From Candidatus Babeliales bacterium (lineage in GTDB: Bacteria; Babelota; Babeliae; Babelales; RVW-14): a stretch of DNA of 64,000 nt. The notes below the pieces were generated by a model. It was not told the origin of the DNA, searched no databases, and saw only the letters and a program-made list of their open reading frames with translations. Both the position numbers and the translations under genes were made by a program. Shown here in pieces: positions 15,713 through 53,264 of the stretch; position 1 is the stretch's first letter, and each line of letters starts with the position of its first letter. Location of the stretch: the NCBI GenBank assembly GCA_041652535.1, contig JBAZHB010000002.1:1582-65581 (forward strand), in the 5' to 3' direction.

Positions 15713-16030
15713 ATGAATGGTTTTAAAATTCTTGTAGAGTCATGTTTTAACACATGGCTCTTGACAAAGGGCGGATGCCCGACAACGCAGTTGGCAACTT
15801 ATGAGCCGTCAATGGCTCATAAGGCAGCGGAATTTATTTATTATTCTTTGCCGTTCGCGTCATGGGATGCTGGCAGGGGTGTAACGCTCTCAATGTCCAT
15901 TAATGGGCTTGAAGAGTTTATCACATCAGCGATGACCGACGTGTCTGATAATGAAACAGGACAATGGCAATGGATGACGCCGGCGACTTGTTTTGTCGCC
16001 GGGTGGTTTACGGTAAAGCCCTCCGGTTAG
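15713..16030 (+). CDS. hypothetical protein
   Basis: 105 aa; strong RBS GGGAGGAAAATAATATG. Confidence 0.5.
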   Translation: MNGFKILVESCFNTWLLTKGGCPTTQLATYEPSMAHKAAEFIYYSLPFASWDAGRGVTLSMSINGLEEFITSAMTDVSDNETGQWQWMTPATCFVAGWFTVKPSG

Positions 16031-16047
16031 AGGACGGGGAGGCAAAG

Positions 16048-17163: not shown

Positions 17164-17362
17164 TTTGAGCGACACCGAACTTCTGGACATGATGGATGTG
17201 CCGGAAGAAAAACTTGAAGAAAGTGTATCTTCCAGAGTAATCAACCCGCCGGAATTGGCAGGTTTTAGCGGCGAAATGACAGATATTGTTATGGGCATCT
17301 TCGAAGAGCGCCACGGAGAAGAGCATGCCTATCAACTATGGATGGAGCGGTTCGGAGGGTAG
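17147..17362 (+). CDS. small acidic protein
   Basis: 71 aa. Overlaps the upstream stop and ends 1 nt before the SNF2 start. Confidence 0.45.
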   Translation: MKKLNDLSDTELLDMMDVPEEKLEESVSSRVINPPELAGFSGEMTDIVMGIFEERHGEEHAYQLWMERFGG

Positions 17363-17363
17363 A

Positions 17364-18776
17364 ATGAACTTTAAAACCGCTCTACTCCCACATCAACAAT
17401 CGGCATATGATAAGCTCCGGTGCCTTAAGATTGGTGCCTTATATATGGATATGGGTACTGGCAAAACAAGAACGGCGTTGGAAATCATTGCGCTACGGCT
17501 TGATGCTGGCAAAATAAATCACATCCTATGGCTCTGTCCATGCTCCGTAAAACCAACAATCAAGGCAGAGCTACAGAAGCATATTGACGGCGATTTGTCT
17601 ATGTTCACTATCGAAGGCATAGAAAGCATGTCGCAGTCTGACAGGCTGTATTTGCGGTTGCTTGATTTGGTGGCTAATCAAAAGGTGTTTTTAATTGTTG
17701 ATGAAAGTAACCTCGTTAAGAATCATTTTGCGAAACGCACAAAAAGGATATCGGCGCTAGCAAAGTCTTGCGCTTACAGGCTTATTTTGAACGGTACGCC
17801 GGTCAGCAAGAATGAAGCGGATTTATTTGCACAGTGGTACATTTTAGATGAGCGCATATTGGGCTATCACTCTTTCTGGAGCTTTGCAGCGAATCATCTT
17901 GAATATGACGATTACGGCAAAGTCAGGCGCGTTCTGAATGTGGATTATCTCACTGAAAAAATATCGCCGTACTCATACGGTGTGAAGAAGGAGGAGTGTA
18001 TTGTACTACCACGCAAGCGTTATCGCGAACGTGATTTTGCGTTGACGGAAGAACAGGAATACGCATATTATGACGCAAAGGAAAAGCTGCTGGCTAATGT
18101 TGACGAGTTTGACAGCACGACAATATACAAGCTTTTTACCGGGCTACAGCAGGTCACAAGCGGGCGCGCAATAGTTAGCATATATCCGCTTAAAAGTATA
18201 CCGTTTTTCGATAATCCGCTTGACAATCCGCGCATTAATGCCCTATTGCGAGAGGTTGACGATGTGGAAGAAAAAATCATAATCTGGTGCAAATTCAAGC
18301 ATGAGATAGACGATGTAACGGCGGTATTGCGGGACAGATACGGAGTGGACAGCGTGGCGCAGTTTTACGGCGGCATAAGTCAGAAAAGCCGCATTGCTGA
18401 AATGGAAAGGTTCAGAAACAATGCTCAGTATCTGATAGCGCACAAGGTCTGTGGTGGCTACGGTCTTAACCTGCAATTTTGCTCACGCATGATATATTAT
18501 AACAATGACTTTAACTGGGCGACAAGGGCGCAGTCAGAGGACAGAGTTCACAGGTTGGGACAGACTAAAGAGGTAATTATCGTTGACATATGCGCCGCAA
18601 GTAAAATTGATGACAGGATTATTAATAACCTTAACTGCAAAGGCGTTCTATGTGACAGATTCAAGGATGAACTCAGGAAGAACAGGGATAACAAGGCGGC
18701 ATTATCCGCCTGGATAGATGGAGGTAGGCATGATAAAAATAGGGCTGAACCAGAGGGAGAAGCAGAGGGAAATTGA
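17364..18776 (+). CDS. SNF2/Rad54-family helicase-like ATPase
   Basis: MDMGTGKTRTALE (Walker A), LIVDESNLVKN (DExx), QSEDRVHRLGQ (motif VI). ATG 17364 is preceded by GGAGGG. Confidence 0.8.
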   Translation: MNFKTALLPHQQSAYDKLRCLKIGALYMDMGTGKTRTALEIIALRLDAGKINHILWLCPCSVKPTIKAELQKHIDGDLSMFTIEGIESMSQSDRLYLRLLDLVANQKVFLIVDESNLVKNHFAKRTKRISALAKSCAYRLILNGTPVSKNEADLFAQWYILDERILGYHSFWSFAANHLEYDDYGKVRRVLNVDYLTEKISPYSYGVKKEECIVLPRKRYRERDFALTEEQEYAYYDAKEKLLANVDEFDSTTIYKLFTGLQQVTSGRAIVSIYPLKSIPFFDNPLDNPRINALLREVDDVEEKIIIWCKFKHEIDDVTAVLRDRYGVDSVAQFYGGISQKSRIAEMERFRNNAQYLIAHKVCGGYGLNLQFCSRMIYYNNDFNWATRAQSEDRVHRLGQTKEVIIVDICAASKIDDRIINNLNCKGVLCDRFKDELRKNRDNKAALSAWIDGGRHDKNRAEPEGEAEGN

Positions 18777-19596
18777 CAAGTGTTTAAGCAATATAAAAAA
18801 AGTGTTCTGTTTTTACTACAAGGATTTCCCTGTGAAATATAATGTAAACTGCGAAATCGAGTACGTTGAGTATGCGGACATTGAAATGTATAAGTTTTTT
18901 TACCGGCTTCTGGAAGAGATCGGCAATGATAGTTTAATCGTTATGGACGGATGTATGAGGACGCAGAACCGATCAGAACTTATTTACAATTGCGCTCATC
19001 ATTACCTGAACCAAACGCCGCATAAAATCATATTTGAACACTTTCCCATTATCGATACCAAGGATGATTTCATGATTTTACTGGACTTTGAAAACAAAGG
19101 TAAATACAAAGGCAAATCTTTTGACTATCTGTTTTTGCAGCAGGAAGATATACTGATTAAGCCACATAAAGTTAAAATGGAATTGTTGCCTGCGGAAGTG
19201 TCGGGCAGTGAAAGGGTGCAGTATGACGCTAAAAAGGAAAGCTTGTTTGATAATTTGGGAGGTAAGGATCCGGACACAATCCCGCGAACATTGCAACTGT
19301 TTGCGGGAGATTTGAAAAAGAAGGCCATTCAGCCTGACAAGCTTTATGTGGCAAGAAACAAGCGGTTTAAGTTAGATAATGTGTTGAGCTATGATGAGGC
19401 TAAGAAAGGCGAATACATCATCATAGATACTCATTACCGCCGTCTTAACATGAATGACTTCCTGAAAATTACCGGCATGGAGAAGATAAAATATCTATGT
19501 ACCACGCTGCCAATTGACAATGTAATAATCTCAGAATTTGCGGAATGGAAAGCGAGGTTGGATGCCGTCTATGCTCAATCAAGTTTATATAAATAA
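18730..19596 (+). CDS. hypothetical protein between the helicase and the PAPS-reductase-like gene
   Basis: 288 aa from ATG 18730 (RBS GGAGGTAGG). No motif recognised. Confidence 0.5.
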   Translation: MIKIGLNQREKQREIDKCLSNIKKVFCFYYKDFPVKYNVNCEIEYVEYADIEMYKFFYRLLEEIGNDSLIVMDGCMRTQNRSELIYNCAHHYLNQTPHKIIFEHFPIIDTKDDFMILLDFENKGKYKGKSFDYLFLQQEDILIKPHKVKMELLPAEVSGSERVQYDAKKESLFDNLGGKDPDTIPRTLQLFAGDLKKKAIQPDKLYVARNKRFKLDNVLSYDEAKKGEYIIIDTHYRRLNMNDFLKITGMEKIKYLCTTLPIDNVIISEFAEWKARLDAVYAQSSLYK

Positions 19597-20689
19597 AAAT
19601 GTACTTGAAGCGGCCAGAGAACGTATGAAGTATATTTTTGATGAGTTTGGGAATATATGCGTAAGTGTAAGCGGCGGCAAGGACAGTACTGTTTTGGCTC
19701 ATCTGGCATTGCAGGAGGCGAACCGAAGAGGGCGGAAGATAGGTATATTTTTTCTGGATGAAGAAGTCGTTTATGAAAGCACGGTAAAACAGATAAAATA
19801 TATAATGGACATGTATCCTGAAAACGCCGTCAAGCTGTGGTTTCAAATTGAATTTAACCTCACCAACTCCACATCAATCAAGGATGGACAGTTGAAATGT
19901 TGGGAGCGCGGCAAGCACGAGATATGGATGCGGCCAAAAGAACCGGACAGCATACAATATAAACCGTGGGACAGGGCGAATGAAACGGTCAGGGACAAAA
20001 ACAAGGGCTTCGGATTCTATGACGCGCTGGACAACTTCCAGAACTCCCGGCGGAACACAGCTTTTCTTGTCGGCCTGAGAGCCACAGAAAGTCCTAACAG
20101 GTGGCGGGCGGTATCAAAGAATCCGGGATACAAAGACGTTTGCTGGTGCACAAAAGGCCATAATTGCAATGTTAATTTTTATCCTCTGTATGACTGGAAT
20201 TTCCATGATATCTGGAAGTACATATATGACGAACAGTTGAAGTACAGCAAGATATACGATTACCAGTACAAGAAGGGCATGGGACTACAGGAAATAAGGG
20301 TATCCAGTCTGATACATGAAAAATCATTTAAGGCTCTGGTGGAGTTGCCGGAGTTTGAACCCAAAACATATGACAAGCTACAGAGGCGGATTGGCGGGAT
20401 AGCAGTAGGTCATATCTATGGCAAGGAAAACAAGATGCTCCGTGCCCGGACGTTACCGAAGAATTTCAAAAGCTGGCGGGGGTACCGGGACTTCCTGCTG
20501 GAAACTTATCCGGACGCCAGCAAAAAAGATATTTTTGTTAAGCGTTATGTCCGATACCTGGATAACAATTATGTCGCTCGCCAGGAATGCCGGCAACTTA
20601 TCCTAAATGATTACGAGAATAACCTTCCTGTGGATAATAAACCAGATCCACGGGAGGAAACAATTAAGAAATGGAGAGAATTATTATGA
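19562..20689 (+). CDS. PAPS-reductase/ATP-pyrophosphatase-family protein (IbrA/DndC-like)
   Basis: VSVSGGKDSTVL PP-loop (SGGxDS). Long C-terminal extension resembling DUF3440. Start is ambiguous (TTG 19538, ATG 19562, ATG 19571). Confidence 0.75.
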   Translation: MPSMLNQVYINKNVLEAARERMKYIFDEFGNICVSVSGGKDSTVLAHLALQEANRRGRKIGIFFLDEEVVYESTVKQIKYIMDMYPENAVKLWFQIEFNLTNSTSIKDGQLKCWERGKHEIWMRPKEPDSIQYKPWDRANETVRDKNKGFGFYDALDNFQNSRRNTAFLVGLRATESPNRWRAVSKNPGYKDVCWCTKGHNCNVNFYPLYDWNFHDIWKYIYDEQLKYSKIYDYQYKKGMGLQEIRVSSLIHEKSFKALVELPEFEPKTYDKLQRRIGGIAVGHIYGKENKMLRARTLPKNFKSWRGYRDFLLETYPDASKKDIFVKRYVRYLDNNYVARQECRQLILNDYENNLPVDNKPDPREETIKKWRELL

Positions 20690-21270
20690 GAGAGATAAAA
20701 ACAGAAGAATACGGAACGTTTATAATACCGGAGGCTCCTATTATCAATACAAAGTTCGGCCCAATTAAATTAATATCCCAAACAGCTATAATAGCACCAA
20801 TAGAGTTAGTACAAGCCAATAATTATAACCCAAACAGCGTGGACAGTAAAAATATGGAGCTGCTGAGGCAGTCAATCATTGATAATGGTTTTTGTTATGG
20901 GGTTGTTACGATCTGGGACGAAGATCTGCAAAAATTTATTATAGTAGACGGATACCATAGATATGATGAATTCAAAAATACTTTACAGGCTGTCGAAATT
21001 CCGATTTATGTACTTGAACAAACCCCAGCACAAAGGATGGCTGCTACAGTCCAGTTTAACCGTGCCCGGGGAGTTCACCAAGTTGATCTCATGGGTGATC
21101 TAGTTAAAGCTTTATTTGAGCAAGGCGAAGATGATGAGGCTATCGCAAAGCACCTAGGCATGGAGCTTGAGGAAGTATTCAGGCTTAAACAAATAACCGG
21201 CATTGCGGAGTTATTTAAGAATCAGACATATTCCCGCTCATGGGAAATGCAGGAGGTAGAAAATGGCTGA
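20686..21270 (+). CDS. ParB-like nuclease-domain protein (IbrB-like)
   Basis: 194 aa. ..NPNSVD.., IIVDGYHRY, QFNRARG, typical of the ParB/Srx N-terminal domain. Confidence 0.7.
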   Translation: MREIKTEEYGTFIIPEAPIINTKFGPIKLISQTAIIAPIELVQANNYNPNSVDSKNMELLRQSIIDNGFCYGVVTIWDEDLQKFIIVDGYHRYDEFKNTLQAVEIPIYVLEQTPAQRMAATVQFNRARGVHQVDLMGDLVKALFEQGEDDEAIAKHLGMELEEVFRLKQITGIAELFKNQTYSRSWEMQEVENG

Positions 21271-21892
21271 ATACAATTATGGTAATGCTTATCTGAGACA
21301 TCCATTGAGCAAAGAGCCTTATGTTTTTGGTGATGGCAGCATAGTCCAAGTGCATGACATATTTGATCCGTTGCCTGAGTTTATGAGGTTGGCAGACATG
21401 GTATTCGTAGATCCACCGTGGAATCTGGGCAACATTAATACGTTTTATATGAAAGCTGAGAAGTATGAACGGGTGGACAGTTTTGAACGATTTTATAAGC
21501 GGTTGTTTGAGTGTATTGGGACAATAGGATCACAAGTCTGTTATGTGGAAGTGGGAAAAGAACACCTTGCGGATTTTATCATGGAAATGCAGAGGCTTTA
21601 TAAATATGTGACATTTTACAACAGCACCTATTATCACAGTAAAGATAAGTTATGTTATGTAATTAGAGGAAGCAAAAAATTTAAGAAGCCCACATTGGAT
21701 GGTATGGATGAGGAAGACATTATTGAGTGGATATGTGCAAACGAGGATTATAATATTATTGGTGATCTCTGCATGGGATGTGGGCTTGTTGGCCTGAATG
21801 CTTACCGGAATGGAAAACGGTTTGTAGGGACGGAATTGAACCATAAAAGGCTATCTGTATTGATAGAGAAAGTAGAGGGTGACAATGAATAA
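21263..21892 (+). CDS. DNA methyltransferase (beta-class N6A/N4C type, DPPW motif)
   Basis: 209 aa. FVDPPWN (motif IV) lies N-terminal of GDLCMGCGLVGLNAYRNGKRFVGTELN (motif I). Confidence 0.7.
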   Translation: MAEYNYGNAYLRHPLSKEPYVFGDGSIVQVHDIFDPLPEFMRLADMVFVDPPWNLGNINTFYMKAEKYERVDSFERFYKRLFECIGTIGSQVCYVEVGKEHLADFIMEMQRLYKYVTFYNSTYYHSKDKLCYVIRGSKKFKKPTLDGMDEEDIIEWICANEDYNIIGDLCMGCGLVGLNAYRNGKRFVGTELNHKRLSVLIEKVEGDNE

Positions 21893-36176: not shown

Positions 36177-36295
36177 TGGGAAAGGTGAGAGTCGAACTCA
36201 CAATACCTGTTTCCCTTGGTCTAGCAAATACGCACAATCGTCATTGTGTAGTTTGCTATTCCGCACCAGTGCGTTACCAATTTCGCTACTTCCCC
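36177..36295 (-). tRNA. tRNA-like gene A (119 nt): class-II-type body, no canonical anticodon arm, 37-nt hairpin insertion
   Basis: Acceptor GGGGAAG/CTTTCCC (7 bp, one G-U). D-arm GCG-AAATTGGTAA-CGC. T-arm GTGAG-TTCGACT-CTCAC. Discriminator A. The central 44 nt between CTGGT and ACCAA contains a TAGCAAA/TTTGCTA + CACAAT/ATTGTG hairpin. Confidence 0.5.
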
Positions 36296-36788: not shown

Positions 36789-36888
36789 TGGACGGAGCAG
36801 GATTTGAACCTGCACGATTGCCTACTCTTTCGTTCGGAACTTTCACCGGATTAAGATTCCGGCGCGGCTACCATTTCGCCATCCGTCC
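36789..36888 (-). tRNA. tRNA-like gene B (100 nt): Leu-type (class II) body, CUU in the anticodon position, 32-nt variable region
   Basis: Acceptor GGACGGA/TCCGTCC (perfect). TG + GCG-AAATGGTAGC-CGC D-arm. CCGGA-ATCTTAA-TCCGG anticodon arm. T-arm GCAGG-TTCAAAT-CCTGC. Discriminator A. Confidence 0.55.
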
Positions 36889-38045: not shown

Positions 38046-38771
38046 TTAGGCCGATAATGCTTTTTGTCTATCCAGTACTTTCCTGATATAGTCAAGTCCC
38101 TTCTGGTAGACTAACGTTTTAATACTGATGCAGGTTGTTCCGTCCGGCTTCGTGTACTTCTGTTCAACTACTCTGAAATAGCCACGGTCAACATATTCCT
38201 GATAAGGCTCGTTATTATCTCTCAATATGCCTTCTGACCGGAGAATCCTGAATAATACATTCCTGCCCTTGCCATAGTTCAGTACTTTTGCAGCCTGTGA
38301 CATTTCAATAGCATCTTTACTGTTGGCTACTGCATCAAAGAATTCAGCTTTGGGCTTCATAAGGGCTATCACTTCATCTTTGGATTCAATGAGCTTCTGA
38401 GCTTCGATGAGTGCGGTTGCTATGAGTAGTTGTGGGGTCATTTTCTGATGAAAGTAATTTTCAACCAGCATTTCATAAACTTCCCACGCCTTGTCTGTAT
38501 TGAGTGATTTGGCATGAAGCAATGTGCCCTTTTCTGTCCAGAGCATGAATTTATTGATGTTTGGCGCAAGGTAGCAATTTGATACTTCGCCCTTAAAGGC
38601 TTGTAATTCCTCGCCCTCAAGAATGAAATAATGTATGCCTAGAATGTACCTATCCTGATTCCGCATAAAGTTCTGTCTTATGCGCTCGGTCTCGGTTTCG
38701 TAACCATCTGCCAGTTGCTGAGTAGTCAATACTCTCTGATTTTTGTGTTCGATTGGTACAAGACTGTTCAT
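38046..38771 (-). CDS. phage antirepressor (ORF6N/KilA-N-like N-domain + KilAC/ANT C-domain)
   Basis: NQRVLTTQQLADGYETETERIRQNFMRNQDRYILGIHYF, and C-terminal AEFFDAVANSKDAIEMSQAAKVL...YFRVVEQKY. Confidence 0.8.
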   Translation of the reverse strand: MNSLVPIEHKNQRVLTTQQLADGYETETERIRQNFMRNQDRYILGIHYFILEGEELQAFKGEVSNCYLAPNINKFMLWTEKGTLLHAKSLNTDKAWEVYEMLVENYFHQKMTPQLLIATALIEAQKLIESKDEVIALMKPKAEFFDAVANSKDAIEMSQAAKVLNYGKGRNVLFRILRSEGILRDNNEPYQEYVDRGYFRVVEQKYTKPDGTTCISIKTLVYQKGLDYIRKVLDRQKALSA

Positions 38772-40187: not shown

Positions 40188-41213
40188 ATGAAACTCCCGA
40201 ACGGATATGGCACCATATATCGATTACCCGGAAACCGCAGAAGGCCTTACATGACTCGCAAGACTATCGGCAAAACAGATACTGGAAAGCCGATTTATGA
40301 AACGATAGGGTACTTTGAAGACAAGGAACTGGCGTTGAATGCGTTAGTAAAAAGTCACACAGAACCCATAATACCAAAAGCAGATATAACCCTAAAAGAT
40401 TTATATGATGAATGGTATCCCGATAAATATGAGTATATTTCAAAGCAAACAGAGGATTGCTATAGAGCTGCATGGAATCGCTTATCTGTATATGGCAAGG
40501 TCGAATTTAAAGAACTAAGGACAGGTCACATTCAATCGGTCGTCAATAAGTGTCATAAGGAAGGCAAAAGCATTTCAACTATAAAAAATATTAAAATATT
40601 GGCTTCAATGCTTTACGATTATGCCCTGCAAAATGATGTGGTCAATAAAAATTATGCTGAATTTGTCAGACTTCCTAAAGTTGAAAAAGAAGAAAAAGAA
40701 ATATTTACCGACTTAGAAATACAGAAACTAGAAAAGGCAGAGGGCGAACCATGGGTTGATACAATACTCATACTGATATATACAGGGTTGAGGATAAATG
40801 AACTTTTAAGTCTTACAAAATTCAGTATAAACTTTGAAAACCAAACAATAACCGGAGGACTTAAAACCGAAGCTGGTAAGAACAGGATAATACCCATACA
40901 CCCAAAGATATTAAAATATATAAAAACATGGTATGACAAAAATGGTGAATATCTTATATGCAATGAAAAAGGCAAGCATTTGTCGGACAGGGTATACCGT
41001 GATACGCTTTACCTTCCGGCACTTGATGCCCATGGGGTGAGAAAACTTAATCCTCATAGTTGCCGTCATACCTGCGCCAGCTTATTGGCGAAAGCCGGAG
41101 CCGACACTCTATATATTCAGAGGATACTCGGTCATGCTAAGTATTCTTTTACTGCCGACACTTATACTCGCACCGATATTGAGGAACTCAGGAAAGCCAT
41201 TTTGAAAATTTGA
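40188..41213 (+). CDS. int: tyrosine-type site-specific integrase
   Basis: 341 aa. TGLRINELLSL (Arg box), HSCRHTCASLL, LGHAKYSFTADTYT (catalytic Tyr region). Confidence 0.9.
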   Translation: MKLPNGYGTIYRLPGNRRRPYMTRKTIGKTDTGKPIYETIGYFEDKELALNALVKSHTEPIIPKADITLKDLYDEWYPDKYEYISKQTEDCYRAAWNRLSVYGKVEFKELRTGHIQSVVNKCHKEGKSISTIKNIKILASMLYDYALQNDVVNKNYAEFVRLPKVEKEEKEIFTDLEIQKLEKAEGEPWVDTILILIYTGLRINELLSLTKFSINFENQTITGGLKTEAGKNRIIPIHPKILKYIKTWYDKNGEYLICNEKGKHLSDRVYRDTLYLPALDAHGVRKLNPHSCRHTCASLLAKAGADTLYIQRILGHAKYSFTADTYTRTDIEELRKAILKI

Positions 41214-44832: not shown

Positions 44833-45036
44833 GTGACAAAAGGTGAATTGGTAAAGACGGCTGTAAAAATGCTCTATCAACTAGGAAGGGAAGAGGAGCA
44901 AGACGGATTTAATGAGTTTCCGCAATTTTGCGAAGATTATTTAAGGGAATCAATACCAAAAATGACTAGCGTCCAATTGCATGAACTGATAAAAGAAATC
45001 AAAACCACTTCGGTAATTGGAATAAAATCCCCCTAA
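44833..45036 (+). CDS. small protein
   Basis: 67 aa. RBS GGAAGGTGAGAGG. Followed by a terminator. Confidence 0.4.
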   Translation: MTKGELVKTAVKMLYQLGREEEQDGFNEFPQFCEDYLRESIPKMTSVQLHELIKEIKTTSVIGIKSP

Positions 45037-45062
45037 TCCATGAGGACTAAGGGGATTTTTTG
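45027..45062 (+). terminator. intrinsic terminator
   Basis: ATCCCC/GGGGAT stem followed by TTTTTTG. Confidence 0.7.
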
Positions 45063-45073
45063 TTAATGTATTT

Positions 45074-45247
45074 TCATAACTCAGGCTTTTTATCCTTGTT
45101 GAAAAAGTATGTAAGTATCATGCCGCCGAACAGCACAATGTCCTTCGGCTCAATAGTACCTTTGATGGACAGGAAAATTATATCTGCCACTACTGCAAAG
45201 GTTACTATAGTTTTCACATCAATGAGTTTTGAAAAGCGTTCTTTCAT
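45074..45247 (-). CDS. putative holin (small two-TM protein)
   Basis: 57 aa, not in the ORF track. RBS AAGGAGAG. TIVTFAVVADIIFLSI and IVLFGGMILTYFF hydrophobic segments. Directly downstream of the endolysin. Confidence 0.5.
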   Translation of the reverse strand: MKERFSKLIDVKTIVTFAVVADIIFLSIKGTIEPKDIVLFGGMILTYFFNKDKKPEL

Positions 45248-45263
45248 ATCAATTTCTCTCCTT

Positions 45264-45815
45264 TCATATACAAATTCGCACTGGTAAAGTTTTACTTATC
45301 AGTGCTTGTACTTCGTTCATTTTTGCCTTTGTCAACTTACCTGCAATGCCGTCAGCCTCCAACCCAAACGCCTTCTGAAATTCCTTGACTGTCATTTCCA
45401 GCGGATTTTCCGGTCGTTTGCCTTTGAGTAAATCGGCTGTGGTAAGCCCCCCGGTCCATTGAAAATGAGGACGGTCTACAAAGGGTACAAGCTTTCCGTT
45501 CTTTCTGACCTTAAAATCTCCGCCCCAAGTTAAACCGAGCTTTTTGCCAATTGCTGCAGCTTTTTTGTAATCCACATTGTGCGGGAATGAACAGTCCCAA
45601 GCCAGGCCATAGTTGTGCATGGAATAGCCAGCTTTTGTGTAGCTCAATATCGCTCCCGGCTTTGTCCTGCCAATAGCGTATATATCGGTTTGCTCCTGCA
45701 TGGTGCGCAGTGTGCTGGTGATAACAGGTTCCAGCCCTTTCGCCCTGCATTCTGCGGTAAACTTTTCCGCAAGGTACTTGACATACGGGTGCAGGTCGTT
45801 TAGATTTTTACTCAA
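45264..45815 (-). CDS. endolysin: peptidase M15 (D-Ala-D-Ala carboxypeptidase-like) + PG_binding_1 domain
   Basis: SMHNYGLAWD, WGGDF...DRPHFQ (M15 metal ligands). C-terminal FQKAFGLEADGIAGKLT. Confidence 0.8.
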   Translation of the reverse strand: MSKNLNDLHPYVKYLAEKFTAECRAKGLEPVITSTLRTMQEQTDIYAIGRTKPGAILSYTKAGYSMHNYGLAWDCSFPHNVDYKKAAAIGKKLGLTWGGDFKVRKNGKLVPFVDRPHFQWTGGLTTADLLKGKRPENPLEMTVKEFQKAFGLEADGIAGKLTKAKMNEVQALISKTLPVRICI

Positions 45816-46065
45816 CTTGTTCTACCTCCTTCTTCTCTAAATCGTCTATCCGGTGATTTGCCACTTTCATTTTTTCGTCGAACACTTCGCACCGTTCCTC
45901 AAGCCTATACGTTCGCTCAATAAGGTTGTTGTGCCTGTTAACTTTGTTTTCCAATTGCTCAAGCCGATAGGCAATCAGCGCCGTACTTCTCCGTTGTGCG
46001 AAAAAGCTTCCCGATAATGTGCCTGCAAAGGCAATTAACGCTACTATAATGCTGCCTATTTCCAT
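45808..46065 (-). CDS. XhlA-like lysis-associated membrane protein
   Basis: 85 aa. N-terminal TM IIVALIAFAGTLSGSFF followed by a coiled coil. Confidence 0.5.
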   Translation of the reverse strand: MEIGSIIVALIAFAGTLSGSFFAQRRSTALIAYRLEQLENKVNRHNNLIERTYRLEERCEVFDEKMKVANHRIDDLEKKEVEQVE

Positions 46066-46137
46066 CTTGCACCGCCCTTCTTTTTATGTAATAATATAAA
46101 GACCTTCCTTTGTCAGCACCGCCGACACTGGAAGGCA

Positions 46138-46176
46138 GTAAAAAGCCGGTTGGTGTTTGCGCACCTTCCGGCCTTT
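46138..46176 (-). terminator. intrinsic terminator closing the pilin island
   Basis: GCCGG/CCGGC stem with T-runs on both strands. Confidence 0.5.
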
Positions 46177-46284
46177 TGGGTTCTGCGGGTTATTTATTTA
46201 TGTTTCACAGTTGCCTTGCATACAAGCCATTTTACACCGTGTATCGAAAGCCCTATTGCAACGCCTACCAAGAATGATTTCATA

Positions 46285-46647
46285 TCAATTCACCTCATTT
46301 TCCACAGCAAGGTATGTGTGACCGGTCGGAAAGTATATCACTGCCTTATCGTCCAGCAACCCTTTATCCTGTAAAAACTGGACTATTGTTTCCGCGCTGT
46401 CACCGTCTTTGATGGGACGGTAAACATTGATTGAAGTCTGTCCTAAAAGATTTTCGTGGTCGTTGATAGTGCAGTACATTGCTATACAGGTATTGATGCT
46501 GCGTATGCTTGTGGTATCGCTTGCTATTTTAATCTGGTCTTGTGCACCCTCCATTTTGGGTATAGTGATTAAACCGATGATACCGATGATTGAAACGACG
46601 CAAACGAGCTCTAAAATTGTAAATCCTTTCTTGCTTTTCTTTAACAT
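46285..46647 (-). CDS. prepilin-type (type IV pilin-like) protein 3
   Basis: MLKKSKKGFTILELVCVVSIIGIIGLI: class III signal (G-1, F+1, E+5). RBS AGGAGGAAG. Confidence 0.75.
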   Translation of the reverse strand: MLKKSKKGFTILELVCVVSIIGIIGLITIPKMEGAQDQIKIASDTTSIRSINTCIAMYCTINDHENLLGQTSINVYRPIKDGDSAETIVQFLQDKGLLDDKAVIYFPTGHTYLAVENEVN

Positions 46648-46766
46648 ATAACTTCCTCCTAAATAATATTTGATGCTGTAAGTATAACACTAAATGTAAC
46701 ATAAAGTCAATATTGATTTGTGTTATATTTTGTGATATACTATTATCAAAGGAGGTGATATAAAAT

Positions 46767-46958
46767 ATGTTTACTATGGATGATAAATTTATTGTTAAAC
46801 CTAACACAACCGAATCAACCACTCTCACTATCCGCATTGATAAAGATGTTATTGCAAGGTTTGACGATTTGGCAATCAAGTCAGGCCATTCCCGTAATTC
46901 GCTCATTAACATGGCACTTCATTATGCCTTGGAAAATCTTAAGTTTGAGGGCAAGTAA
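46767..46958 (+). CDS. CopG/Arc-type ribbon-helix-helix protein
   Basis: TLTIRIDKDVIARFDDLAIKSGHSRNSLINMALHYAL. RBS AAGGAGGTG. Confidence 0.6.
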   Translation: MFTMDDKFIVKPNTTESTTLTIRIDKDVIARFDDLAIKSGHSRNSLINMALHYALENLKFEGK

Positions 46959-46990
46959 ACAATTTAAAGCACACAGGAGGCGATTATATT

Positions 46991-47314
46991 TTGTGTATCG
47001 TTTACCGTCACTTAAACAACCAAGGTGAAGTTATTTATGTTGGTCAAACTAATAGCTTGTATACGAGGCAAGAAGGCCACAAAAATGGTCTTTCTCATAT
47101 ATCAGAGGAACATCGAAATAGTATTGCAAAAATTGAGCAGTTTGAAACAACCTCGCAGGCTGATTCCGATTTATTAGAAATTTACTATATCAACAAATAT
47201 CAGCCGAAATACAATAAATCTTGGAAACATGAAAAACCTATGTCTCTTACGATAACCCATCCATTCATATGGGAAGAATATATTCCAAGAATCAAAAGAC
47301 ACAAAAATCATTAA
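46991..47314 (+). CDS. GIY-YIG nuclease-domain protein
   Basis: TTG start after AGGAGG. VYRHLNNQGEVIYVGQTNSLYTRQEGH...LEIYYINKYQPKYN. Confidence 0.7.
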   Translation: MCIVYRHLNNQGEVIYVGQTNSLYTRQEGHKNGLSHISEEHRNSIAKIEQFETTSQADSDLLEIYYINKYQPKYNKSWKHEKPMSLTITHPFIWEEYIPRIKRHKNH

Positions 47315-47344
47315 CTGAATACATTGCAAAGAAAAGAGCGCCGA

Positions 47345-47635
47345 TTAAAGCGCTCTTACCATTTCTATTATCCACCAGCTGTGACTTAACACAATAATCC
47401 CTTCCCCAATCAGCGCCATCCGCAAGAGCCGTTTGTACCTGTCTTTCTTGCGGAATATCAGCCAGAAGGGTATCAGTATAACCGCCATCATAACCAGTCT
47501 CGCCAACAGACTCCACCCGAATGGCAAGTTGAATAGCCACGCCATAAGCGAGTTAGCTTCATAAGCATACTGTGCGGTTACTGATATATAGGTTAGTACA
47601 AAGTCTGTAAGCATGAGGATAATTAATACTGGCAT
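47345..47635 (-). CDS. small polytopic membrane protein (DUF5658-like)
   Basis: 96 aa, 3-4 hydrophobic segments. Sits between pilin genes. Confidence 0.5.
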   Translation of the reverse strand: MPVLIILMLTDFVLTYISVTAQYAYEANSLMAWLFNLPFGWSLLARLVMMAVILIPFWLIFRKKDRYKRLLRMALIGEGIIVLSHSWWIIEMVRAL

Positions 47636-47644
47636 GTTGCCTCC

Positions 47645-48667
47645 TTAATTAGCAACTATTGTTACTGCGCCATATGGTGCAATATATCCACCATACCAAG
47701 GCGTTCCGGTATTTTGTGCTGGAATAGTAATGGTATATGTCCATGTATTGGAATCTTTTGTTAAGGTAAATATTGCTGTTTTGCTAGCACTGGTATCTCT
47801 CGATGTTATATGTATTTGGCTATTACCAGGACCACCTATATGAATATCCCCACTGACAACTGCAAATGTATATGTATCGTCCGGCCTGTTTATCTTTGGC
47901 AATAAATCTGTTGCAGTTTCTCCATAGGTGGTGCTAAAACTCAACGAAGGTGCCGGTAATGCTATTGCTGGAAATACTGCAGTAACTACTCCTGAATTAA
48001 TGGGATTTGTTGCAGTCGCTCCGGATACAGTAAAGGAATTCGCGGTTACACCTGCAAATGTAAAACCAGATTTTACAGTAAGGGTAATAGTTGCTGTATA
48101 GGTTTTGCCTGCGATAAAATGGCTATCAGCAGGTGCCCAAGATACACTACCGGTATATTGTGCAGTCTCTGGGATGGATGTTACCGGTGTTGCATCAGCT
48201 ACAGGCGGGATTACGCCAGAGATTGCGAGTAAGGTTACTACGCCGCTCGGCGTTGATGTAGATTGTTCTTGTACTGTTACGTCACCATTTGTACCAACAT
48301 CAATATCATAATGGCTGGCAGGAACTTGTAAATCCCGGCCATTCAACGATACCAAGGGGTCAATTGCAGCCTCTATTTCAGGCTCTGTATATGTGTGTCC
48401 ATCCCCATTTGTCCATCCGGTAGGTGTTAAATTGCCATTCTCATCCAGCACAAGTGCCGCAGGATTGATTGGAGCTTTTAAATCACCTGAGGCAATCGCC
48501 ATTTCAAGTGACCTAGCTACAACATGAGCCGCTTCCTTATCAGCCGCCCTTCTCGCTGCATCAGTAAAACCGCCTAATCTTGGAACTGCAATTATCGCAA
48601 GTATGCCAAGTATTGCTATAACAACTATCAATTCTATAAGGGTAAAGCCTTTTTTATTCTTAAACAT
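47645..48667 (-). CDS. large prepilin-type protein 1 with Ig-like C-terminal domains
   Basis: MFKNKKGFTLIELIVVIAILGILAIIAVPRLGGF. C-terminal YTGSVSWAP...KTYTATITLTVKSGFTFAG... beta-rich repeats. Confidence 0.8.
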   Translation of the reverse strand: MFKNKKGFTLIELIVVIAILGILAIIAVPRLGGFTDAARRAADKEAAHVVARSLEMAIASGDLKAPINPAALVLDENGNLTPTGWTNGDGHTYTEPEIEAAIDPLVSLNGRDLQVPASHYDIDVGTNGDVTVQEQSTSTPSGVVTLLAISGVIPPVADATPVTSIPETAQYTGSVSWAPADSHFIAGKTYTATITLTVKSGFTFAGVTANSFTVSGATATNPINSGVVTAVFPAIALPAPSLSFSTTYGETATDLLPKINRPDDTYTFAVVSGDIHIGGPGNSQIHITSRDTSASKTAIFTLTKDSNTWTYTITIPAQNTGTPWYGGYIAPYGAVTIVAN

Positions 48668-48681
48668 TTCGATATTCCTCC

Positions 48682-49101
48682 TTACTTTTTAATTTGGTAA
48701 TCGTATGCCGGGCCAATTGGATTAGTTGATGTCAATGTTACAGTTACTTCGCCATTAGGCGCGATAACAATGTTTCCATCAACTATTGCTGCTCCACCGT
48801 ATTTTGCAGAAGTCAAATCCAAATCCCTGTCAAGTATCAAATTTTCTGCTTTCAATGCGGTTATCAAGCCAGTTGTGCTTGTATCAAAAGTAAATGTTGA
48901 ATCTGTCTGATGTTCTGCTACATATATAGCCGTTGCATTCGCAGTCACCGCAGCCGCTTCCTTATCTGTTGCTATTTTTGCATTCTCGCTAAACCCGCCT
49001 AAACGCGGCACTGCTATAATAGCCAGTATCCCCAAAATTGCGATAACCACGATGAGTTCTATCAGCGTGAACCCTTTCCTACCTCTTAACCTCTTAAACA
49101 T
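48682..49101 (-). CDS. prepilin-type protein 2
   Basis: ATG 49101 after AGGAGGA. MFKRLRGRKGFTLIELIVVIAILGILAIIAVPRLGGF. The 27-residue block KGFTLIELIVVIAILGILAIIAVPRLGGF is identical to pilin 1, with synonymous DNA differences. Confidence 0.8.
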   Translation of the reverse strand: MFKRLRGRKGFTLIELIVVIAILGILAIIAVPRLGGFSENAKIATDKEAAAVTANATAIYVAEHQTDSTFTFDTSTTGLITALKAENLILDRDLDLTSAKYGGAAIVDGNIVIAPNGEVTVTLTSTNPIGPAYDYQIKK

Positions 49102-49303
49102 GGTACATCCTCCTAAAATTATTGTCAGGTTTTTCCCCTGCATATAGGTTATACCATGCAAAATTATTCTTAGACACTTTTAAAAAAATATTTTTATTTT
49201 GTACGGCAATCTGCTATAATGTGATTGCGAACATACAAATTTTACTTTTCTTTAGTCCCCTCGTTGGAGGGGATTTTTGTTATGTTGCCGTTGTTTTTAA
49301 TAG

Positions 49304-49585
49304 TTATGCTGTTGTGCCGTCTGCATCTACCCATCCGCCAGTAGTTGTATACCATATCGGACGGCCAAGTGTGGTGTCAAAATACATGCTGCCATCTGAT
49401 AAAGAAGTTGACCGGTCTGTTGAGACTCCTGATAAATTATAAGACACTTCTGCCGCCGCGCCTGCTGAATTGAGTACATACATTTTTTCGCCTGACAAAA
49501 GATAAAGTCTTGCATCTCCCGAATCAGGATTAGCCGGGCTTGATGATTGCTCAAGAAACGTTAATTGAATAATTTGTTGTGCCAT
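49304..49585 (-). CDS. tail-fibre tip / receptor-binding-associated small protein
   Basis: 93 aa. MYFDTTLGRPIWYTTTGGWVDADG motif, recalled from phage fibre/depolymerase termini. Confidence 0.4.
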   Translation of the reverse strand: MAQQIIQLTFLEQSSSPANPDSGDARLYLLSGEKMYVLNSAGAAAEVSYNLSGVSTDRSTSLSDGSMYFDTTLGRPIWYTTTGGWVDADGTTA

Positions 49586-50413
49586 TTAAGCCACCTCCAC
49601 CATAATTATATCCCCGTCAATGTCAAAGACTATTTCGGGGCTTGTTGTACTACCGTTTACCAAGGGTTTGAGTTTTGTTTCTCTGTGGTCATTCTGATGA
49701 TTGAATGCAAGGGTTGTTTTAGTTGAATTTGTATATATATCATAGTTTGAGGCATAAATAATAAATGGAGGAACTGATATCTCTCCACCTGTGTGTATCA
49801 TTGTTTGCCATTGCCCATTATTAGTGAAAAGATATAAAGAATATATATTATAAGTATTTTCACTGACGTATACTTCCTTTTCAGTTGTAAAAAGAGCAGT
49901 GCCATAACCAGGATATAAGAAAATAATTTGATATTTTTCACCTGGATACGTTGGCGGTGTATCGGGATAATACCGCCATGTCTGTATTTGTGTCTTGTGA
50001 TAATGGCTTGATATTTCGCCTGTCAAAACCGCTTCAATATTAACTTTTGTTACCAGACTTGCATGAGTGTGTGAGGTCAATTCTCCTGTCAGTACCGCCT
50101 CAATTTCAGCCTTTGTCATTGCTGGACTAGCCGCAACATGCCAACTTGTACCGCCATCACAGCTTATTTGCCCGAAACAATTCTGTTTTATCGCCGTACT
50201 GTTTGCTGTGACTGTTCCTGCGCCATAGTTGACAATAATAGAATCAGCGAATGTATATACCGCCGCCGCTGCCGGAAAGGTTAGCGTTATCGGCGTAGCA
50301 GAGGTACATTTTATTATTGTGTCGAACAGGTCGATATCATCTAGGGTGACAGACGATGTGACTACTTTTTGCTTCATAAGTTTATCCTCCTGTTGCTTGC
50401 TCCGTCTTTCCAA
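49586..50413 (-). CDS. tail fibre protein with tandem IEAVLTGE-x-SH-x-H motif
   Basis: AEIEAVLTGELTSHTHA and VNIEAVLTGEISSHYHK, 20 aa apart. Confidence 0.5.
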   Translation of the reverse strand: MERRSKQQEDKLMKQKVVTSSVTLDDIDLFDTIIKCTSATPITLTFPAAAAVYTFADSIIVNYGAGTVTANSTAIKQNCFGQISCDGGTSWHVAASPAMTKAEIEAVLTGELTSHTHASLVTKVNIEAVLTGEISSHYHKTQIQTWRYYPDTPPTYPGEKYQIIFLYPGYGTALFTTEKEVYVSENTYNIYSLYLFTNNGQWQTMIHTGGEISVPPFIIYASNYDIYTNSTKTTLAFNHQNDHRETKLKPLVNGSTTSPEIVFDIDGDIIMVEVA

Positions 50414-51753
50414 TATGCCGCTTCTACTCTCTTACCCGTCAGCGTCCCCGCGTCCGTCGTTGTCTTTGCAAAAAATACCGTTGTCAGGCTTGAACTATCA
50501 TACACATCTGCATTAGCCTGCAATAGTGTCGTATATGAGTAGTTGTCTGCATCGCTAATGTATTCCCACACGCCCGTATTAAGCTGGTATAATTTGCCTA
50601 CACTTGCTGATTTGACCTGCGTATCGCCTGAAAAGTTGTAGTACCATGGTGCGGAGTTGACAACAAGGCGAATGTTTGCCCCTGCTGAAAATATGACTTG
50701 ATAGGGGTATAGCGAAGTCAAAACAGGCGAATCGGGGTAGGTTGTCCATGGCTGATAGTCGGGTGCGGATAGGGTCAGATATGAGGCGTCAAGGATGCGG
50801 GTGGGGGCTAATGTTAAACCTGTTTTAATTAGCCTTGAACTAGCCGTAGCATACAGAACATCGCCTAAGCAAACCATAGAATACGAATTATTTGTAAGCC
50901 CATATTCAGATGCTCCCACAATAATCCATGAATCTACATTATCGTATTTATACAGTGCTCCGCTTTGCCCTTCTACTCCGTATAACTCATTTTTACAAAC
51001 AGTAAGAGAAAACATTTCGCCACTCGGTAAGGGATTTGAAATTACTTCTATCCAAGAAGAAGTACCATCCCATTTATATAGTTGCTTGCCAAGATTAATT
51101 GTTGCATATACGGTTCCATTGAATTCTGCCGCACTATTAACCCAATTGCTACCTTGAGCGGAAACAATTACTACCCATGTATATATTCCATCCCAAAACA
51201 AGATTTTCCCCTTGGTTGTAACTGCATAAATACTATTATTTTTTACAAATAGTAATTTTATTATATCTTGATATTCTATATAAGGAGCCATTTCTACAAA
51301 TTCATTGTTAACTACTTTTACCAAATATCCTACACTTAATGCTAAATAAATTTCGCTATTGTAAACTATCCCCGCCGTTATACTCTCTTCAAACCATCCT
51401 ATGCTATTTACGTCAATCCAGCCATTTACCCCATCCCACTTTTTTAAATATGCAGAACTCATATATGTTTGCGAACCGTAAATAGCATTGTTGTATACCA
51501 AAATAGGTACAACATAATCGTAGTTTGGCGTGATTGCTATTTGTTCCCACGCATCTATACCGTTATATTTAAGTAGTCCGTAAATGTCCGTACCTGCGTG
51601 TATCTCTCCGTTTAACACTATCGAAATATTCGCAGGGATACTGTCTAATTGTGGTGCAGCCAACGACCACCCGTATGGAGCCGTATCCATCCTAAACGCC
51701 GCACACCCTCCCCTTGCCATCATTGCACTTGCACCCATCAGACCACCTCCCAA
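50374..51753 (-). CDS. tail-associated beta-propeller-like repeat protein (candidate receptor-binding protein)
   Basis: At least 6 repeats of roughly 45 aa with ..IY(A/G)....G.L.K(W/Y)DG...W..V pattern. Confidence 0.4.
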   Translation of the reverse strand: MGGGLMGASAMMARGGCAAFRMDTAPYGWSLAAPQLDSIPANISIVLNGEIHAGTDIYGLLKYNGIDAWEQIAITPNYDYVVPILVYNNAIYGSQTYMSSAYLKKWDGVNGWIDVNSIGWFEESITAGIVYNSEIYLALSVGYLVKVVNNEFVEMAPYIEYQDIIKLLFVKNNSIYAVTTKGKILFWDGIYTWVVIVSAQGSNWVNSAAEFNGTVYATINLGKQLYKWDGTSSWIEVISNPLPSGEMFSLTVCKNELYGVEGQSGALYKYDNVDSWIIVGASEYGLTNNSYSMVCLGDVLYATASSRLIKTGLTLAPTRILDASYLTLSAPDYQPWTTYPDSPVLTSLYPYQVIFSAGANIRLVVNSAPWYYNFSGDTQVKSASVGKLYQLNTGVWEYISDADNYSYTTLLQANADVYDSSSLTTVFFAKTTTDAGTLTGKRVEAAYWKDGASNRRINL

Positions 51754-53264
51754 GCTGTTGTAACACCTGTGCGCACCGTGACACTCTCCTGTGGGTATAG
51801 GTATTTTGTCAACGTACCGTCCGTCACCGTCACCATGCCGTTTGCTGCGTTTGCATTATGGATACAAAACATTACAATGCCATCGTGGTCTACTGCGCTG
51901 CCTGCAATGTTTTTATCTGTGGTAGGGTCGGGCAGGGTAATTATGGTTGTGCCGGTGACATTGACTTGCCTTGCGCTCGCCCAGGTGAGAGTTGTGGCGG
52001 TGGTTATGGCGCTGCCATCGTCTATAGTGGGGTCGTCGGTGTCAACTAAAACACTTTTAGCCTTTGCTCCTGCCGGCCAATCAATGTCCACATATAAATT
52101 TGTCTGTGTTATCGCGCCCGTGCTGTCGATATAGGTATTGCTGATTCCTCCGCTTTCTTTTGCCTTTGAGACTACCTTTTCTAAATACTCCATGCCCGTC
52201 TGGTTGCCCTGAGTAGAAAAATTGTCAGACTTTCTCACGGAGCATTGAAGGGTACAATGCAGGTTCTGGTTGCCGTTGTCCTGCAAGGTGACTTCTTCAA
52301 TGAGGTAGTATGTATCCGAGCTTATCCCGAATGTCGGTAGATTGACTTTCAGTTTTGTTCCGGCAATCCAGTCGAGCGTCCATGATTTGATTGTCAGTGT
52401 TCGGGGAATTATGCCGAACTTTTTCAGTGCATTTGTTGCCGCTGTTGTAGCATCTGCCAGGAGGTCAATATTGCCATCATTTATTACTGTGCCATATACG
52501 CCCGTGCCGCCCTCTATTGCCGCCCGTGCCGTCTGTTCTGTGGTGTCCTCCTCATACGTTTGTATTGCATACCCATCGTCGCCAATGCCGCCGCGGACAA
52601 ATACCTTATTCGCATATCCGTCGAGTGACTTTTCATACGATTCAATCTCAAAGTCGGTAAACGCGCCGCCCTCAACAATGTCATGCGCTGCGGCTACCTC
52701 TGCATCATCGGCAACAAAGTATAATGCTTTGCTGTCGTCGATATACCATTTATATCCGGAGGCTGCCGCCATTTCGTTTAGGATTTCACCGCACGATTTG
52801 CACACCGCGTCATATTCACCATCGCCCACAGGGTCAGCTCCTGTGGAGATAGTGCCTGCCGTAATACCTTCTGAGCTTAATACGGGGGTATAGGGTGTTA
52901 CCTGACTGGCTATCAAGTCTGTTACAACATAGCCTGCCGATTTTTGGTCATAGGGGTTTGTTATTGTCCTCCTTGACGGTATACTGCCATAGCCATTTGA
53001 GGTGATACTGAGTTGTATCTTTTTTCCTGCGCCATATCCCGCCTCCAGCTTTTCATGCTGGATTGACTGAATAACGCCGCCGAATATGACTGTAGCGCCA
53101 TCTAAAACTTGCACATCCTGTCCCACATCCGGAAGGTATGCGGAGGTAGTGACAACGGAGAATGAGCAGTCGTTTTTGTGCCCTGTCCTGCGCGTGACAG
53201 ATAAAGAGCCTGCTAATAACAGGCTCGTTTTATCTATTGTTGCAATTTTTAGTGTATATGCCAT
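51738..53264 (-). CDS. distal tail / baseplate-hub-like structural protein
   Basis: 508 aa. First large gene after the tape measure. MAYTLKIATIDKTSLLLAGSLSVTRRTGH... as in siphovirus tail components. Confidence 0.45.
   Translation of the reverse strand: MAYTLKIATIDKTSLLLAGSLSVTRRTGHKNDCSFSVVTTSAYLPDVGQDVQVLDGATVIFGGVIQSIQHEKLEAGYGAGKKIQLSITSNGYGSIPSRRTITNPYDQKSAGYVVTDLIASQVTPYTPVLSSEGITAGTISTGADPVGDGEYDAVCKSCGEILNEMAAASGYKWYIDDSKALYFVADDAEVAAAHDIVEGGAFTDFEIESYEKSLDGYANKVFVRGGIGDDGYAIQTYEEDTTEQTARAAIEGGTGVYGTVINDGNIDLLADATTAATNALKKFGIIPRTLTIKSWTLDWIAGTKLKVNLPTFGISSDTYYLIEEVTLQDNGNQNLHCTLQCSVRKSDNFSTQGNQTGMEYLEKVVSKAKESGGISNTYIDSTGAITQTNLYVDIDWPAGAKAKSVLVDTDDPTIDDGSAITTATTLTWASARQVNVTGTTIITLPDPTTDKNIAGSAVDHDGIVMFCIHNANAANGMVTVTDGTLTKYLYPQESVTVRTGVTTAWEVV

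Follow-up and report, generated by a model that had tools for sequence, protein, structure and literature searches.

The 64-kb window analyzed here (positions 1,582 to 65,581 of contig JBAZHB010000002.1; all coordinates below are those of the window) is a temperate siphophage-like genome which carries an island of type IV pilin-like genes at 46194-49101. The island encodes three prepilins on the minus strand. Pilin1 (48682..49101, 139 aa) is a homologue of the major pilin PilA, pilin2 (47645..48667, 340 aa) is a modular pilin, and pilin3 (46285..46647, 120 aa) belongs to a second major-pilin family, which we call pilinC. An initial annotation, made from the letters of the DNA, had named these three open reading frames (ORFs) and asked for a profile check. 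Each protein passes the gathering score of Pfam N_methyl (PF07963; E 3.7e-9 for pilin1, 2.2e-9 for pilin2 and 1.7e-5 for pilin3), and each is above the TIGR02532 cut-off. The placement of the island was also correctly described, with tail-fibre-like genes (49304-53264) on one side and genes for an XhlA-like protein and an M15 endolysin (45264-46065) on the other.

The three leader peptides are of class III: MFKRLRGRKG/FTLIE in pilin1, MFKNKKG/FTLIE in pilin2 and MLKKSKKG/FTILE in pilin3, where the slash follows Gly-1. All three proteins have Phe at +1, Glu at +5 and a hydrophobic stretch behind it. When the class III motif was searched as a regular expression over all ORFs of the window, exactly pilin1, pilin2 and pilin3 were returned in 64 kb. 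A long N-terminal helix with a globular head is supported by the AlphaFold2 (AF2) model of pilin2 and by the full-length alignments of pilin1 and pilin3 with pilins of bacterial loci; sequence matches to solved pilin structures span the helix. Pilin1 and pilin2 have in common a block of 29 identical residues (KGFTLIELIVVIAILGILAIIAVPRLGGF) in this helix, which also fits the consensus of the bacterial family. The DNA of the block differs at 22 of 87 nt, all differences are synonymous, and the synonymous sites are saturated (pS 0.81). The identity of the block and its synonymous-only differences had been reported in the initial annotation, which gave the length as 27 residues. Its claim of selection is borne out as well, with dN/dS values of 0.12 for pilin1 and 0.28 for pilin2 indicating purifying selection; the value for DUF5658, a membrane protein encoded beside them, is 0.11-0.15.

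Both pilin1 and pilin3 resemble pilins which occupy the major-pilin position in bacteria. Pilin1 is about 55% identical, end to end, with members of a family of 125-140-aa pilins. One such homologue lies directly 3' of PilB-PilT-PilC in the bacterial locus L003, and another lies inside the complete pilus locus L005; both loci also encode PilD, PilM, PilN and large minor pilins. In the bacterial loci L178 (complete genome CP042243.1) and L179, the gene immediately behind PilC encodes a member of the pilin3 family, and pilin3 is ~41% and ~35% identical, respectively, to these pilins in the major-pilin slot. Its identity to the phage copies in L176, L008 and L177 is 50-56%. The pilin3 family is better conserved than the pilin1 family. 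Among NCBIfam models, ComGC is the best match of pilin3, below threshold. Eight stretches of the giant protein P0254 (2783 aa) match the conserved head motif of pilinC (residues 48-81 of pilin3); the pilin head motif therefore occurs in repeated form in a very large protein as well.

No PilB, PilT, PilC, PilD, PilM or PilN match was found in the window by tblastn with queries from two bacterial loci, the only matches being the three pilins. This agrees with the initial annotation, according to which a prepilin peptidase and an assembly ATPase are missing and host machinery would be required. Thus the phage encodes likenesses of type IV pilus components without assembly genes, the comparison being with the pilins of bacterial loci.

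The island is composed of two units. Unit 1 (49281-47328) consists of a hairpin, a 180-nt leader, pilin1, pilin2, the DUF5658 gene (with gaps of 14 and 9 nt between the genes) and a terminator. The DUF5658 gene (47345..47635, minus strand) encodes a 96-aa membrane protein with three predicted helices, and its assignment in the initial annotation is confirmed by PF18902 (E 8e-13). At the left border there is a GC-rich hairpin, TCCCCTC-CAAC-GAGGGGA (49254..49275; dG -12.4, z -4.9), which is invariant in four cassette variants. Because a U-run follows it on the plus strand only, it is oriented to stop antisense (plus-strand) transcription. The non-coding leader of the pilin1 operon (49102..49281, minus strand) contains an AGGAGG ribosome-binding site and a candidate extended -10 box, TGgTATAAC, which was read by eye and is not listed by the promoter scan. 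Among the four variants the leader shows hardly any change, although the dS of pilin1 between the window and L006 is 0.59; we infer that the leader has promoter function. The right border is a terminator-like hairpin with a U-rich tract (47334..47357, minus strand; dG -14.6, z -3.8). No RNA family of Rfam was matched within the island.

The borders of unit 1 are sharp. Homology with L001, L006, L088 and L089 starts at 49281, and homology with L006, L087, L088 and L089 stops at 47328. L006 matches the window over exactly 49281-47328, at 89% nucleotide identity; the tail-fibre genes upstream of the match and the gene downstream of it are different ones. In L001 the identity is 99.97% leftwards of 49281, and the sequence upstream of this point differs. 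L088 and L089 have the same end points as unit 1 and have kept the leader, both N-terminal helices and DUF5658 (81-86% nucleotide identity), whereas the globular parts of their pilin1 and pilin2 are unrelated sequence and a Thr/Pro linker replaces the middle module of pilin2. Thus a diverse surface is set on a conserved core behind a conserved upstream region. By its borders, differing flanks and terminators the island is a moron in the sense of Hendrix; its promoters are consensus matches or eye readings. As the initial annotation had stated, it has its own terminators, the U-tract hairpins at 47357-47334 and 46172-46140. After the terminator, L006 (4727-), L087 (530-5020), L088 (1886-), L089 (1883-) and L176 (2372-) have a gene for a conserved protein of 458-579 aa, whose N-terminus in L176 resembles by eye a peptidoglycan-binding domain, and in L087 a protein of >913 aa comes next. 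In the window neither gene was found; their place is taken by the RHH/pilin3 unit described below and by the lysis genes.

Unit 2 is made up of pilin3 and a coupled 29-aa ORF, and is divergent from a gene for a ribbon-helix-helix (RHH) protein. This gene (46767..46958, plus strand; CopG/Arc-like, PF01402, E 1.1e-5) encodes a candidate repressor. It is followed, after a gap of 32 nt, by a gene for a 107-aa GIY-YIG nuclease (46991..47314, plus strand; PF01541, E 2.4e-9) which comprises the catalytic domain only. Neither of the two plus-strand genes appeared in the initial annotation. The region between pilin3 and the RHH gene (46648..46766) contains TTGACT-N18-(TG)TATACT facing pilin3 and TTGATT-N17-TATACT facing the RHH gene. 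Both -10 boxes lie within a 25-nt inverted repeat, tandem TTTGTG(T/A)TATA repeats extend over the RHH promoter, and repeats of different sequence are present in the equivalent intergenic region of L176, L008 and L177. From these elements we infer a divergent promoter/operator. The 29-aa hydrophobic ORF (46194..46283, minus strand) has a GAGGTG ribosome-binding site, overlaps the pilin3 stop and is translationally coupled. It had been reported as a transmembrane peptide; the ORF does exist with its ribosome-binding site, but no homologue was found behind the relatives of pilin3 elsewhere, and its status as a gene is uncertain. An interrupted terminator-like hairpin with U5 (46140..46172, minus strand; dG -20.1, z -4.3) closes the pilin3 unit on the side of the XhlA-like gene.

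An RHH gene of matching position and orientation is found in L176 (PF12651), and the equivalent ORF of L008 is RHH-like by eye, with no family match. Because neither has a nuclease gene behind it, the GIY-YIG gene, which was seen in the window only and is missing from the corresponding position of both L176 and L008, looks like a later arrival and is probably a secondary insertion 3' of the RHH gene. The two plus-strand genes (46767-47314) have the lowest GC content of the island, 34.7%. The catalytic domain of the nuclease is present, and 107 aa leave no space for a DNA-binding domain. The nuclease may be a homing endonuclease lacking such a domain of its own, or it may be a toxin-like partner of the RHH protein.

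Pilin2 has a modular architecture. Its pilin module (residues 1-~140) is followed by a single beta-rich surface module of ~90 aa (~141-235), and residues ~240-340 form a C-terminal domain. In the AF2 model a helix (residues 10-59) is followed by beta elements; the head has pLDDT values of 55-80, residues 141-240 are modelled at pLDDT >93, and the C-terminus is poorly modelled. The middle module is ~60% identical to modules of hundreds of surface proteins, which also contain DUF1566, FGE-sulfatase, LCP or Listeria-Bacteroides-repeat domains. These carriers (proteins P0002-P0120) are from Spirochaetota, Bacillota and others, and the module is repeated in them. Its consensus is I.GVT.PV.GATPVT.ITET.QYTGTV.WSP...F...TVYTATITLTAK.GYTL.GV.ANFFTV.GA (window 47963-48247), and it has no Pfam family. 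The model confidence, the independent occurrence of the module and its exchange in L088 and L089 mark pilin2 as a modular pilin, in which a surface module is grafted onto a pilin module. The initial annotation spoke of Ig-like repeats. There is a single module instead of repeats, and 'Ig-like' remains a loose description because a Foldseek search of the pilin2 model against PDB gave no significant match, the best being Fab fragments at E 0.56. Pilin2 is present in the window's own cassette family only and is an addition to the recurrent core described next.

Beyond the family of the window, a pilin gene paired with a DUF5658 gene was found in L008, L010, L011, L024 and L032 (Pfam E 1e-11 to 1e-18) and in L176, which makes seven divergent lineages with the window included. 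The partner pilins have a common helix (GFTLIELIVVIA) and heads which are only 17-35% identical across lineages, and the DUF5658 proteins are 20-52% identical between lineages, with D11, T15, E26, N28, H85 and W88 invariant. The pair lies between tail and lysis genes in L008 and L024, between integrase and lysis genes in L010, and between lysis genes and integrase in L032; these positions are typical for morons. The recurrent core across the phage lineages is a small pilin with DUF5658. In L176 and L008 the full order is the same as in the window, i.e. pilin, DUF5658, an opposite-strand RHH-like gene and a pilin3 homologue (52-56% identical). Therefore, both pilin3 and the RHH gene are parts of the system. 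When the DUF5658 model was run over every ORF of 174 fetched loci, it matched solely genes adjoining a pilin gene in phage contigs; no match was found in 80 bacterial pilin loci, nor in L003 or L005.

We considered whether DUF5658 could be a miniature prepilin peptidase, and rejected this idea on an hhalign probability of 0.2% against a PilD profile and the absence of a Pfam A24 match. The AF2 model of DUF5658 is of low confidence (pLDDT 64.7). The name DUF5658 was not mentioned in the literature searched, and PADLOC gave no match for any island protein. By analogy with accessory genes of mobile pilin alleles discussed below, the most economical reading of DUF5658 is that of a putative pilin accessory factor. 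The cassette is the first functional lead for this family.

Orphan pilins are common in viral contigs. Among the loci fetched from IMG/VR with the pilin pattern, 77 of 80 encode orphan pilins, and at least two class III ORFs are present in 47 and at least three in 22. Homologues of PilB, PilC, PilD, PilT and PilM were found in none of the 80 IMG/VR loci, as compared to 53 of 80 bacterial pilin loci, which rules out contamination of the viral contigs by host flanks. The pilin genes of viral contigs are thus orphan subunits, a point which bears on the annotation 'pilin' in viromes. GenBank phage records (INPHARED) gave no match to positions 45000-52900 by blastn or to pilin1-3 and two DUF5658 proteins by tblastn, and PLSDB plasmids gave none to DUF5658 by tblastn; in both databases the low-complexity filter of BLAST may conceal hydrophobic helices. 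Pattern scans returned already known contigs only, both in IMG/VR (pilin2, pilin3 and DUF5658) and in JGI metagenomes (DUF5658). Many marine viral contigs of IMG/VR (e.g. L044 9301-11362, L021 2930-4527, L051 9323-10876) have two or three tandem pilin ORFs of ~140-150 aa behind a ~220-aa protein with an N-terminal 'GNSLAEFAVTTAMMA' segment. They have phage-like neighbours and no pilus machinery, and represent a second, unrelated type of viral pilin cassette.

The rest of the window fits a temperate phage. The minus strand between 63.9 and 53.5 kb contains capsid, protease, adaptor, major tail and tape-measure genes; there is an integrase gene at 40188-41213 and an Ant-like anti-repressor gene at 38046-38771. 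The closest relatives of the pilins among 185,579 species genomes are all from Bacillota (Clostridiaceae, Anaerosolibacter, Tepidibacter, Thermoanaerobacterium and metagenome-assembled genomes (MAGs) of Bacillota), and the GC content of the window, 41.4%, matches L003 (42.0%) and L005 (39.6%), with no anomaly in the island. For these reasons the host is, on sequence evidence, most likely a Clostridia-type member of Bacillota with type IV pili. Identical proteins are encoded in two short metagenome contigs and in a 70,494-bp contig of an NCBI MAG which bears the label 'Candidatus Babeliales'. This contig is probably mis-binned, because the pilin relatives, the XhlA-type lysis gene and related integrases indicate a phage of Bacillota.

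Several observations in the window touch on other subjects. Rfam tRNA matches were obtained on the minus strand at 36177-36295 (45 bits, 119 nt) and 36789-36888 (55 bits, 100 nt). ARAGORN made zero tRNA calls across the window, and the two matches may be tRNA genes with insertions or introns. A plus-strand block (15964-21892) contains genes for an SNF2-type helicase (17286-18776), a PAPS-reductase/DUF3440 protein (19538-20689) and a ParB-like nuclease-domain protein (20671-21270). In phages, such a set is frequently associated with DNA modification. The tail-fibre-like region contains a 459-aa protein (50374-51753) whose C-terminal domain, residues 319-450, is 57% identical to a domain which the 963-aa tail protein of L008 holds twice (8112-8513, 9492-9797); a tail protein of L032 (2445-2792) is 34% identical. 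The motif of the domain, W..YPD.P...YQ[VI]IF, is similar by eye in a 275-aa protein of the window (49586-50413). This domain may be a shared receptor-binding module of the cassette-bearing phages.

Taken together, the gene content, the portable borders and the recurrence in phages led us to conclude that the island is probably a moron of a temperate siphophage which supplies subunits to the host pilus. Superinfection exclusion by receptor replacement is its most likely benefit, and the odds of this reading as a whole appear to us about even. The mechanism would be as follows. Pilin1, pilin2 and DUF5658 would be transcribed as one unit from the conserved leader to the terminator, and pilin3 from a sigma-70-type promoter with an operator-like inverted repeat in common with the divergent RHH gene. 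The prepilins would insert in the membrane and be cleaved after Gly-1 by the prepilin peptidase of the host (PilD). The match of their N-terminal helices to the host pilin family would allow the PilB/PilC platform of the host to polymerize them alongside or in place of host PilA. Pili of monoderms can be heteropolymers with two major pilins (PMC10628169). Pilin1 and pilin3 would alter the surface of the shaft, and the bulky pilin2 would be at the tip, the only placement that would suit it by analogy with other modular pilins. The role of DUF5658 would be that of an accessory factor in the membrane, which acts on the pool of pilins and favours those of the phage. As a result, lysogens or infected cells would no longer be recognized by pilus-binding phages. 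Remodelling of host pili with superinfection exclusion had been suggested in the initial annotation, and this role now has a direct experimental precedent in Pseudomonas prophages (PMC12952977) and is in keeping with the pattern of conserved helix and swapped head.

Several points weigh against this interpretation. Replacement of host PilA is a proposal drawn from the pilins of Bacillota loci, and the assignment of a Bacillota host conflicts with the NCBI label 'Candidatus Babeliales'. The promoters are consensus matches or eye readings, and with a position in the late region expression could be confined to lytic growth. For use of the pilus as receptor by this phage or its competitors, the sole pointer is the tail-fibre domain mentioned above, which is a hint. 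The surface module of pilin2 is typical of adhesins and points as readily to adhesion. DUF5658 has no structural match in BFVD, no PADLOC match and no known function, and its adjacency to pilin genes was seen among the fetched loci.

The adhesin-like module of pilin2 raises the alternative that the island serves lysogenic conversion for adhesion or colonization. Phage pilins would enter host pili with pilin2 as a tip adhesin, the swapped heads would be alternative ligand-binding surfaces, and the lysogen would gain a niche. The architecture of pilin2 is indeed like that of the Streptococcus sanguinis adhesin PilB (PMC8179133), its middle module is common to hundreds of surface proteins, and large pilins bearing Big_4 or VWA modules are found in the bacterial type IV pilus loci L003 and L005, too. 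However, the core which recurs is the small pilin with DUF5658, and pilin2 is confined to the family of the window. Moreover, wholesale head replacement of a major-pilin homologue between near-identical cassettes is more suggestive of receptor or antigen escape, and no ligand can be inferred for any domain. We regard adhesion as the main rival reading, although it is rather unlikely to be the purpose of the island. A different outcome is predicted if the assembly machine is jammed or titrated by the phage pilins, by DUF5658 or by both as dominant-negative inhibitors, with loss of pili, exclusion of pilus-dependent phages and perhaps a block of DNA uptake. In function this would be like the phage proteins Tip, Aqs1 and PfsE. 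Overexpression of a single minor pilin disrupts assembly, and a similar action has been suggested for truncated phage PilA-like proteins (PMC12952977). DUF5658, a small membrane protein with invariant polar residues which is absent from the 80 bacterial pilin loci, and the sub-threshold ComGC match of pilin3 would also fit. A mere plug, however, needs neither complete conserved heads under purifying selection nor head swapping, and the full-length likeness to functional major pilins argues for assembly-competent subunits, so that we consider inhibition distinctly unlikely.

The position of the island amid tail-fibre and lysis genes could be taken to mean a role in the virion or in lysis, or it could be functionless host DNA captured passively; both seem very improbable. 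Proteins with class III signals are destined for the membrane and prepilin peptidase rather than for virions, and the cassette occurs in several lineages at other positions, e.g. adjoining the integrase gene in L010 and L032. Passive capture disagrees with the terminators and borders of the island itself, dN/dS values of 0.11-0.28, the conserved leader and the ordinary GC content; on these grounds, together with the recurrence in several lineages, we reject a recent capture. The initial annotation further proposed that the pilins are acceptors for a nonulosonate-type sugar, giving glycosylated pili. The pathway itself is real. At 1-15500 on the minus strand there are genes for NeuB, a PseB-like dehydratase, DegT, a class III aminotransferase and a CMP-transferase, along with two GNATs, a hexapeptide transferase, PIG-L, WbqC and two methyltransferases. 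Two genes interrupt the cluster, one of the LAGLIDADG type (8434-9042) and one of the HNH type (11182-12069), and the ORFs at 3416-3937 and 4020-5045 have no family match. Pilin glycosylation is known as phage evasion in P. aeruginosa (PMC11841053), and the pilin2 variants of L088 and L089 carry Thr/Pro-rich linkers. However, no glycosyl- or oligosaccharyl-transferase was recognized among the window ORFs tested, the two loci are 31 kb apart in different modules, and the other cassette-bearing contigs have no sugar genes within the DNA examined. The link to the sugar pathway is thus speculation, and we give it hardly any weight.

Phage-encoded pilins as a class are already known, and the initial annotation overstated their novelty. 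PHROGs contains the family phrog_3433, 'pilin' (moron, auxiliary metabolic gene and host takeover), which pilin1-3 match with E values of 1e-8 to 1e-11, and the orphan pilins of the IMG/VR loci belong to the same picture. The match is confined to the N-terminal 60-70 residues, i.e. to the shared helix, and the family is silent on cassettes, DUF5658 and function. The new element is the link between DUF5658 and the pilins. In calling the island the most system-like novelty of the window, the initial annotation had overlooked this recurrent pair, the divergent RHH/pilin3 unit and the sharp borders. In the literature searched we found no description of a cassette which combines DUF5658 with an RHH-controlled second pilin, or of pilin-head exchange between near-identical cassettes.

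Pilin2 is comparable to the modular pilins PilB and PilC of S. sanguinis (Raynaud et al. 2021, PMC8179133), in which a small pilin module also bears C-terminal grafts; the graft of pilin2 is neither a vWA domain nor a lectin but a ~90-aa beta-rich module, and it is phage-encoded. For DUF5658 the nearest comparison is with TfpY, TfpZ, TfpO and TfpW of the P. aeruginosa pilin islands, whose genes stand directly after a mobile pilin allele and travel with it. TfpY promotes pilus assembly and probably interacts with pilins without being part of the pilus (Qaderi et al. 2025, PMC11841053). The likeness of DUF5658 (~96 aa, three helices) to TfpY is one of gene position alone. A tentative extension, which we put forward as a possibility less probable than not, is that DUF5658 is a phage-borne pilin partner with a D...T...E-x-N...H..W signature which helps foreign pilins to take over or compete for the host machine, and that with the RHH-controlled second pilin it forms a portable 'pilus serotype-conversion' system of temperate phages of Bacillota. 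If this is true, the system would be the pilus counterpart of O-antigen seroconversion, and the swappable heads would record competition of phage against phage for the pilus receptor in Gram-positive anaerobes.

Tip, Aqs1 and PfsE are phage proteins which also target type IV pili to exclude other phages. They are non-pilins which switch the pilus off via PilB or PilC, whereas the window encodes complete structural subunits. The closest known systems are P-FimU and P-PilA. P-FimU is incorporated into the pili of P. aeruginosa and blocks tip-binding phages (Sztanko et al., Cell Rep 2026; PMC12952977). The same study found P-PilA-like genes in Xylella prophages and in lytic phages, and conserved promoter regions of p-fimU. 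As in our island, these are pilins of phages or prophages without machinery, which resemble host type IV pilins and combine diverse surfaces with conserved upstream regions. They differ in being single genes of phages with Gram-negative hosts (Pseudomonas, Xylella), and the tested case is a minor tip pilin. The window has two major-pilin homologues with a modular pilin, DUF5658 and an RHH gene, and has a likely Bacillota host. The natural head-swap variants of the cassette could be used for mapping phage-pilus recognition. Receptor replacement by phage pilus subunits has so far been demonstrated in one Gram-negative model, and the present locus suggests that uncultured phages of Gram-positive anaerobes make wide use of this strategy, and that it can be multi-gene, regulated and modular.

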